DNA from: Escherichia coli
GTDB lineage: Bacteria; Pseudomonadota; Gammaproteobacteria; Enterobacterales; Enterobacteriaceae
Assembly: GCF_048403405.1 (NCBI RefSeq)
Contig: NZ_CP183129.1
Direction: 5' to 3' (one strand)
DNA length: 64,000 nucleotides
Part shown: piece by piece, positions 37,982 to 38,575 of the stretch
How positions within the stretch are numbered: position 1 is the first letter of the stretch
How the letters are laid out: the number at the start of each line of letters is the position of its first letter
Translations under genes and position numbers: made by a program
Notes under the pieces: model-generated
Databases searched by the model: none
What the model saw: only the letters and a program-made list of their open reading frames with translations
What the model was told of the DNA's origin: nothing

Positions 37982-38293
37982 TGGTAGGTTTCAAAAAACA
38001 CAATAACCAATTGTATTTGAAGCAAAAGACAAGACTTTGAGATGTTTTTTTGTACCTTTTTTTTATGTTTTTAACTGTCTGATTTTATTGAAATCTTTTT
38101 TAGTTTTGCAGAAGGAATTTTTTACTTGATTGTAACTTTTTCGTTTTTTTGGGGCTAATTGACGCGCAATGCTGGGCGGGGAGCGCACAGCCAAAAAAAC
38201 CGAAATTGACCGCTAATTACTGCCAATCATCATCGCTCTGATTGAGCGTAAATCATTCAGGTTATTCAGTTCTTCCTTCTGCTCTCGCTGACG

Positions 38294-38575
38294 TCAATAA
38301 ATCCCATCATTGCGATCAACCTCATCCTTAACCATTGATGCGAGCAGTTCTTCCAGTTTCTGCGCTGACAGCTTTACCTGGTGATCTTCAGCATCTTCCC
38401 GGGCTATTGTGGTTCGCGCAGTGGCTGATTTTGCTGACATCACCACAGGGGGCAGACGGACCATTGAACCATGGCCTCCGGAACAAATAAGGGCAAAAAT
38501 AACAACCACTATCGAAAGCTCACAAACTAACCGCAGCACGTTCCTGCATACGACGTATCTGCGGCATAATCCCAA
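38294..38575 (-). CDS. hypothetical 93-aa protein at prophage end (doubtful)
   Basis: ORF only; start lies inside the 214-bp repeat/hairpin; no recognisable family. Confidence 0.25.
   Translation of the reverse strand: MGLCRRYVVCRNVLRLVCELSIVVVIFALICSGGHGSMVRLPPVVMSAKSATARTTIAREDAEDHQVKLSAQKLEELLASMVKDEVDRNDGIY

Follow-up and report, generated by a model that had tools for sequence, protein, structure and literature searches.

The attR-side end of an ompW-integrated lambda-like prophage in Escherichia coli: an AT-rich, predicted Int-binding arm, tail fiber gene debris, and a 93-aa open reading frame that is most likely not a gene

The AT-rich segment at positions 37,982 to 38,575 of a 64,000-nucleotide stretch of Escherichia coli DNA (NCBI RefSeq assembly GCF_048403405.1, contig NZ_CP183129.1; the whole stretch is referred to here as the window) is the last ~600 bp of a lambda-like prophage adjoining ompW. 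It represents the constant right-hand (attR-side) end of the ompW-integrating PPompW prophage family. Taken as a whole, we read this end, with a probability of about 0.88, as an AT-rich Int-binding arm followed by tail fiber gene debris, across which a 93-aa open reading frame (ORF) runs by accident and is not a gene. A PPompW prophage end is an already known kind of feature, nothing in it falls outside known kinds, and the value of the analysis lies chiefly in annotation.

The host–phage junction was located by alignment at 37983/37984: identity to K-12 ompW extends up to 37983 and is absent past it, a boundary within 2 bp of the point at which an earlier reading made from the letters alone (the sequence-only reading) had begun the prophage. 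That reading had also recommended a comparison with the attP regions of ompW-integrating phages. We aligned the four att sites, taking attP from phage 204576, attL from strain LC-1302-2020, attR from the window, and attB from K-12. In the record 'Escherichia phage 204576' (CP025907), the sequence of 37982–38575 occurs at 99.5% identity and directly abuts the integrase gene, so that this record includes attP. The attR of strain LC-1302-2020 is the same as that of the window, and ~23 kb away this strain has an excisionase gene, an integrase gene, and an intact ompW, which together mark attL; its sequence was used because the window stops inside the packaging (terminase-sized) genes and the other prophage end lies outside it. 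The comparison gave the classical att pattern. On the right side of the core, attP agrees with attR and attL with attB; on the left side, attR agrees with attB, and attP is similar to attL. The features of the attachment region are as follows.

37956–37983, no strand assigned: common core GTGGTATCGATATCCATGTACCACACTG, 28 bp common to attP, attB, attL, and attR.
37865–37983, minus strand: displaced bacterial ompW 3' end, comprising the stop codon and the 38 codons before it; up to 37983 it differs from K-12 ompW at a single base.
37984–38129, no strand assigned: sequence assigned to the P arm of attP (the int-distal arm, here forming attR), equal to attP of phage 204576 to the right of the core; lowest G+C, with A/T tracts.
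38102–38115, plus strand: predicted arm-type Int site AGTTTTGCAGAAGG, matching three tandem TTTTGCAGAG copies in the same orientation, 119 bp from the core.
38072–38084, minus strand: inferred site AATCAGACAGTTA resembling that of integration host factor (IHF), with one mismatch to WATCAANNNNTTR, inside the conserved block 38068–38115 (phage 204576 locus 9740–9752).

The core holds a dyad, GTGGTA-N12-TACCAC, as read from the sequence, and 20/21 bases of 37959–37979 are retained in a diverged variant (WP3-S18). Judging from the block shared by all four sites, strand exchange must fall within these 28 bp. The integrase would have recombined the 28-bp phage core with the identical 28 bp near the ompW 3' end, leaving the original ompW tail (37865–37983) stranded beside the phage P arm. 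To the left of the core, on the int side, the phage has an ompW 3' end of its own, which is diverged from the bacterial one. Integration would therefore replace the end of the gene and leave ompW intact, and the Prokaryotic Genome Annotation Pipeline (PGAP) does annotate an intact 217-aa OmpW at the LC-1302-2020 attL. Because this incoming 3' end is diverged, lysogens would express a chimeric OmpW whose last ~38–43 residues are phage-encoded. Two different phage-borne versions of this 3' end were observed (loci considered: phage 204576 attP, 9533–9652, and LC-1302-2020 attL, 20646–21299), and the chimeric OmpW of LC-1302-2020 has 217 aa versus 212 aa in K-12.

The sequence-only reading had described roughly 300 bp next to ompW as very AT-rich, with A/T tracts typical of att arms. 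The AT-richness is indeed exceptional, but its extreme part covers only ~155 bp. G+C content is 25.3% in 37984–38137 (154 bp) compared with 51.3% for the window; so low a value is reached by only 0.016% of 154-bp windows, the lowest of which begins at 37991. Extended to 300 bp (37982–38281), G+C content is 35.0%, in the lowest 1.1% of 300-bp windows. Runs of at least five A or T occur nine times in 229 bp, or 39 per kb against 4.3 per kb window-wide. The arm proper measures about 146–154 bp, since 38130–38212 belongs to a different module and a gene remnant begins at 38213. Its outer limit near 38130 is fixed twice, as the point at which homology to the variant arm of WP3-S18 ends and as the point at which homology to the 3' flank of SerU-LTIIb stf2 begins.

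The identification of the A/T-tract stretch as an att arm has been borne out by the four-way pattern, the arm-binding domain of the integrase, a repeat copy, and selective conservation in a diverged relative. The integrase, a lambda-type tyrosine recombinase, contains Pfam PF09003 Arm-DNA-bind_1 (residues 2–71, E 1.2e-21) and PF00589 Phage_integrase (E 4.8e-17), and the gene upstream of int encodes an Exc-family excisionase. Directly after the int stop codon in attP, TTTTGCAGAG occurs three times in tandem, within the P' arm (phage 204576 locus 9495–9528). The only other close match near att is AGTTTTGCAGAAGG, which gives one recognizable P-arm copy; when the arm was shuffled, a match with at most one mismatch turned up in 0.9% of the mononucleotide shuffles and in 4.1% of the dinucleotide shuffles. 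In the diverged WP3-S18 variant, 38068–38115 is identical at 46/48 positions, compared with 61/84 (73%) for 37984–38067. The core 10-mer of the predicted Int site (38104–38113) and its AG prefix are unchanged there, the lone difference in the 14-mer lying at 38114. One-mismatch IHF sites number three in the arm, one of them in the conserved block; across the phage 204576 locus, 32 were found against 23 expected, so that no enrichment is apparent.

On these sequence grounds, 37984–~38130 is assigned as the P arm of a lambda-type attP, and the window end as a member of the lambda-type attP/attR arm class. Its AT-richness would reflect a role as bendable DNA that binds proteins and does not encode them. 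By analogy with lambda, we infer that it is needed to assemble the recombination complex, and its Int site and the adjacent IHF-like site would help build an excisive intasome together with the Exc-family excisionase.

The P arm of lambda attP carries the Int arm-type sites P1 and P2, plus IHF, Xis, and Fis sites. The ompW system resembles lambda in its heterobivalent integrase with an Arm-DNA-bind_1 domain, in the dyad symmetry of its core, and in having three tandem arm-type repeats beside int and one more ~120 bp out in the opposite AT-rich arm. In contrast to lambda, the arm-site sequence TTTTGCAGAG is unrelated, only one P-arm site is recognizable, the excisionase belongs to the Exc family, and a sib-like hairpin is lacking. 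Furthermore, the 28-bp common block lies inside a protein-coding gene, for which the phage carries a replacement end. The int stop codon itself (phage 204576 attP locus 9471–9500) lies inside a perfect 7-bp hairpin, CTGGTCA-TTTGA-TGACCAG-TTTT, which runs into the first arm-type repeat and may act as a terminator of int that overlaps a site bound by Int.

The surroundings of the segment agree with a PPompW prophage. PPompW elements are lambda-like prophages in ompW with attL/R of 121 bp in that gene (Nakamura et al. 2021, PLoS Pathog, PMC8112680), and their excision and circularization in O145:H28 were shown by polymerase chain reaction and sequencing of the excised circles (PMC8112680). The prophage in the window shares their integration site, att region, and lambda-like gene order, and the published 121-bp attL/R corresponds to its ~119-bp ompW-like stretch ending at 37983. 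Additionally, 37982–38575 is 97.6% identical to a block in the ompW prophage of O157:H7. On the bacterial side, the plus strand of the window carries trpBA-yciG-yciF-yciE (according to the ORF list and the RefSeq annotation of a 99.9% identical genome), followed 3' of yciE by the minus-strand ompW fragment of 38 codons (37865–37981) and then by phage DNA; RefSeq labels 37865–37983 'OmpW family, missing N-terminus'. Counted from the ompW side, the phage genes are a tfa fragment, an S-adenosylmethionine (SAM)-methyltransferase gene, an intact tfa (39628–40212), and a side tail fiber gene of 1008 aa (40212–43238), beyond which tail, head, and packaging genes continue to the window end.

Beyond the arm lies the 93-aa ORF, whose coding status the sequence-only reading had called uncertain. 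ORFs of ~93 codons that are spurious fill the window, and the size itself is unremarkable. The ORF and the elements from which it is assembled are the following.

38294–38575, minus strand: 93-aa ORF, a chimeric pseudo-ORF running from a TTG start (38573–38575) through post-tfa non-coding DNA and a DUF4376 remnant to a nonsense codon.
38213–38482, minus strand: DUF4376/phrog_1141 pseudogene, comprising the C-terminal ~86 codons, with the first ~105 codons lost and an in-frame TGA at 38294–38296.
38483–38578, minus strand: post-tfa non-coding module, holding a conserved hairpin of 13 base pairs at 38530–38565.
38579–38848, minus strand: tfa 3' remnant, present a second time as the 3' part of the intact tfa; Pfam Caudo_TAP E 6e-25, positions 75–130 of 131; a pseudogene according to PGAP.

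The doubt proved well founded, as the C-terminal 60 codons are a truncated DUF4376 remnant and the N-terminus is translated from non-coding DNA. ORF residues 34–93 correspond to positions 106–165 of phrog_1141 ('tail fiber protein', 194 positions), and translation through the stop codon continues to position 191. The read-through product, ...MVRLPPVVMSAKSATARTT...DRNDGIY*RQREQKEELNNLNDLRSIRAMMIGSN*, includes the stretches LPPVVMSAK and TTIAREDAEDHQVK and matches positions 111–191 of phrog_1141 (E 3.7e-20) as well as phrog_7703 (E 7.5e-25). In Pfam, the ORF and the read-through gave only sub-threshold noise (DUF5646, Reticulon), and the DUF4376 threshold was not reached. Compared with intact C-termini, the remnant is 66% identical to SerU-LTIIb stf2 (192 aa) and 61% identical to Rac-SA53 tail4 (187 aa) over 80–83 residues. 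These alignments start at ORF residue ~34–38 and run 26 codons past the TGA to the homologs' own C-terminus, and the position of the TGA reads CAG or CGC in stf2 and tail4. In every annotated copy checked, from four independent genomes representing this haplotype, O157:H7, and two variant loci, RefSeq/PGAP describes a 'DUF4376 domain-containing protein; internal stop; missing N-terminus'.

Both intact homologs contain Pfam DUF4376, stand directly behind a tail fiber gene, and are the last gene before the att arm. In contrast, the remnant in the window has the hairpin module and a tfa fragment upstream and no partner fiber gene; relative to intact DUF4376 genes (~190 aa), it retains only the last ~45%, with a nonsense codon. 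A closer intact parent was not found above 66% amino acid identity in the phage collection or above 80% DNA identity in E. coli genomes. DUF4376 proteins are tail fiber chaperones in the Alteromonas phages V22 (gp27) and A5 (PMC7289586, PMC10579305). By analogy with these distant relatives, the only ones in which chaperone function has been shown, the ancestral gene, annotated as a tail fiber gene, was likely a tail fiber chaperone gene. From its truncation and internal stop, the piece in the window is classed as a remnant and not as a functional family member.

The N-terminal part of the ORF has a different origin. Codons 1–31 translate the non-coding module, codons ~34–93 being DUF4376 positions, and residues 1–33 have no protein homolog and no Pfam or PHROG family. 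The underlying DNA (38483–38578) has intergenic homologs in HK97, lambda, and Rac-SA53: in lambda at 24161–24219 and again just after tfa, in HK97 between the annotated sib site and tfa, and in Rac-SA53 downstream of tail4. A further homolog is found in mEp460. A hydrophobic segment and a start codon within a repeat and hairpin had been noted for the ORF, and both are present. The hydrophobic stretch comprises residues 13–31, VLRLVCELSIVVVIFALIC, with a mean Kyte–Doolittle value of 2.66, and is encoded by 38483–38539. The TTG lies within a duplicated segment (38559–38755, 89% identical to 39608–39804), 8 nt upstream of the hairpin, through which codons 4–16 read.

The hairpin is structurally conserved. 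In 12 phage and prophage sequences, 94% of the alignment cells at stem positions are paired and three pairs show compensatory changes, compared with 24–52% pairing in slid controls, and the minus strand folds with a z-score of −3.2. The U-tract after the stem is weak (UUAGUUUGU, minus strand) and partly caught by a simple terminator scan; other family members have GC-rich tails. A promoter and terminator scan found promoter-like sites at chance level only, and its sole terminator-like match inside the ORF was this hairpin. The post-tfa hairpin probably terminates transcripts of the late (tail fiber) operon or forms their 3' end, in the tfa sense.

Lack of conservation of the ORF in related prophages had been proposed as the refuting check. 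The frame is open in the copies, yet the start is not conserved; and because these prophages are 97.5–100% identical in DNA, an open frame would be kept by descent alone, which makes the check uninformative. In the O157:H7 copy, a 1-nt deletion inside the hairpin gives a 102-aa ORF with another start and other first ~10 residues. Deposited lengths at the locus are 56, 59, 65, 71, 81, 90, 93, 102, and 103 aa, the commonest being the 56-aa form (ATG at 38464, after GGAGG), and neither a start nor an N-terminus is conserved among homologs. Lacking a conserved start and cut off by a nonsense mutation in what was originally a longer frame, the ORF is classified as a chimeric pseudo-ORF; it is most likely not a gene.

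In the history we propose, tail fiber modules would have been swapped repeatedly, leaving stacked recombination leftovers beyond the arm. The first would be what is left of a DUF4376 gene, its 3' flank and final ~86 codons, the gene having been inactivated when it lost its 5' 55% and acquired the nonsense codon; the second and third would be the non-coding hairpin module that normally follows tfa and a tfa 3' fragment. The ORF would then run from a TTG just past the stop codon of the tfa remnant, through the hairpin module, into the old DUF4376 frame, and on to the nonsense mutation.

Several observations weigh against this interpretation of the prophage end. The frame is open in every copy examined (five aligned). 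The DUF4376-derived part is identical in the window and O157:H7 while its flanks differ, a pattern that constraint could explain as an alternative to recent ancestry. An in-frame ATG (38462–38464) has GGAGG 10 nt before it, and the 56-aa version is called on at least 1000 contigs. As for the arm, the Int site is a single P-arm copy with modest statistical support (p about 0.01–0.04), and the exact IHF consensus WATCAANNNNTTR was not found in the arm.

The ATG bears on what is, among the alternatives, the best surviving one, although we regard it as very unlikely: that translation yields just the C-terminal 56 aa, from the ATG at 38464 to the TGA at 38294, as a free peptide that could, for example, hamper tail fiber maturation of related phages. 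The Shine–Dalgarno-like GGAGG (38475–38479) ahead of the ATG, the preference of gene finders for this form, and the absence of differences between the window and O157:H7 in DUF4376-derived DNA whose neighboring segments differ are all consistent with such a peptide. However, the fragment spans only positions ~111–165 of 194, without the N-terminal 105 and the last 26 residues, and falls below the Pfam DUF4376 threshold. The 10-nt spacing from GGAGG to ATG is long, the fragment lies downstream of the terminator-like hairpin without a promoter match, and the sequence identity is explained by recent common descent (97.5–100% overall). Slightly less probable still is the broader proposal that a product of 56–93 aa is translated and has been kept for acting on tail fiber maturation or the envelope, for instance against superinfecting phages with DUF4376-type chaperones. 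If it were true, about one in five complete E. coli genomes would have retained a domesticated chaperone fragment beside attR.

Between the arm and the remnant lies one further module, which must be separated from the attachment site.

38130–38212, no strand assigned: conserved 3' flank of the former DUF4376 gene, common to the DNA downstream of SerU-LTIIb stf2.

It contains an imperfect inverted repeat (38138–38152 and 38191–38205) and a direct repeat, AATTGACSGC (38158–38167 and 38203–38212). SerU-LTIIb has this flank too, although its integration site is a tRNA-Ser gene, so the flank travels with the tail fiber module and not with int/att. It would be surprising, to about the same degree as a retained translation product, if this flank and its inverted repeat formed a sib-like retroregulatory RNA element controlling int across attP, as in lambda. 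The location would suit such an element, 150–220 bp past the core on the side away from int, as for the annotated sib of HK97, and a 15-nt inverted repeat is present. Its arms, however, are a T-run and an A-run separated by a 38-nt spacer, with a terminator shape on neither strand, and there is no stable fold (z −0.5 to −0.7 for 38125–38220, compared with −5.3 for HK97 sib). A sliding fold scan found nothing in 37995–38350, and there was no Rfam match. The pairing register is not kept in SerU-LTIIb, a phage with a different attachment site, and a terminator-like hairpin is already present at the int stop codon. A sib-like retroregulator was thus rejected on its weak folding and its linkage to a different att type.

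Least probable of all is that the 93-aa ORF, or its 102-aa O157 form, encodes a genuine small membrane protein, an att-proximal 'moron' with a transmembrane helix fused to a domesticated chaperone fragment: the frame shared by all five aligned copies, the hydrophobic 19-mer (mean Kyte–Doolittle 2.66), a GGAG 6 nt before the TTG, and older annotations as 'putative phage protein / tail component' would fit, but the GGAG simply belongs to the final codons of the tfa remnant, a 1-nt indel gives the haplotypes different start codons and different first ~10 residues, the hydrophobic stretch is encoded by a segment that corresponds to intergenic sequence in HK97, lambda, and Rac-SA53 and takes in half of the structurally conserved hairpin, the N-terminal part is covered by no Pfam or PHROG family, and the ORF stops at a nonsense codon inside a longer ancestral frame that PGAP treats as a pseudogene.

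Among complete E. coli genomes, 983 of 5426 carry part of the locus and 562 of 5426 (about 10%) carry the full block next to ompW. Nearly all copies of the locus are 97.5–100% identical, which leaves little power to detect selection. With the accidental ORF set aside, the exact boundary (37983/37984) and the core (37956–37983) are now fixed for the ompW prophage family, a AGTTTTGCAGAGG-like sequence is available as a testable prediction for the arm-type site of Int, and the deposited 'hypothetical protein / tail component' entries of 56–103 aa at this locus can be recognized as pseudogene pieces. Furthermore, since this constant end flanks the exchangeable effector locus of PPompW prophages in enterohemorrhagic and enteropathogenic E. 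coli (EHEC and EPEC), its anatomy helps to delimit the cargo slot.

In Shiga toxin-producing E. coli (STEC)/EPEC, the slot just inside the block holds type III effector genes, the exchangeable effector locus, together with a 21-bp secondary attB (PMC8112680). In contrast to these prophages, the slot in the window is without effectors and contains a SAM-methyltransferase gene between duplicated tfa ends. The secondary attB (attB-in-PP_1) is absent from the whole 64-kb window even with three mismatches allowed. The methyltransferase is a class I SAM-dependent enzyme whose gene (38905–39573, plus strand) is convergent to tfa and is bracketed by two copies, 89% identical, of the hairpin together with the 3' end of tfa (38529–38755 and 39579–39804). 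It looks like a cargo ('moron') cassette recombined in at the hairpin module, in the slot of the EHEC type III effectors.

Hairpins of this family, with the form CCGCAG..ACGU..loop..ACGU..CUGCGG, stand at the late/tail fiber boundary in lambda (two), HK97, mEp460, Rac-SA53, Chlobot, Salmonella phage SPF_0923, and this prophage (two); in the locus extracts they lie at 1076–1110 and 2663–2697 for lambda and at 625–660 for HK97. Their recurrence and position suggest that the family may be an unrecognized end-of-late-operon terminator and a hotspot of module exchange. An Rfam search of 37982–38575 by E-value returned nothing except a chance-level small nucleolar RNA match (E 2.7). The sister copy at 39582–39613 (minus strand) exactly matches the terminal hairpin of Rfam RF02799 CssrB, positions 149–180; unlike it, the copy at 38530–38565 is a sequence variant without an Rfam match. 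A search for CssrB in the literature library found nothing relevant.

Rfam IS009 ('Gene') matches 39671–39869 with 225 bits, above the gathering threshold, and 38622–38825 with 112.5 bits, both on the minus strand; since these matches fall wholly within the 3' coding part of tfa, this 'RNA family' appears to model coding sequence. PGAP also annotates a 45-aa 'hypothetical protein', WP_001309429.1 (39518–39655, minus strand), whose start lies within the 3' end of tfa and whose frame continues across the hairpin copy. At its N-terminus it uses the frame of the O157:H7 102-aa ORF, and it is probably one more artifact of a frame that stays open through the palindromic module. For Rfam isrG, three weak matches far below threshold at 41897–42658 (plus strand), antisense to the Ala/Ser-rich repeats of the side tail fiber gene, are most likely compositional noise.

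A different arrangement of the bacterial flank, which may stem from another integration event, an attB-in-prophage copy, or a deletion, occurs in a second group of genomes, WP3-S18-ESBL-08 (locus 1270–2900) and AR_0058, where trpA is followed directly by a diverged ompW-like 3' end and yciG, yciF, and yciE are absent. Next come a ~85%-identical P arm, ash and Rha genes, and the same DUF4376 remnant.

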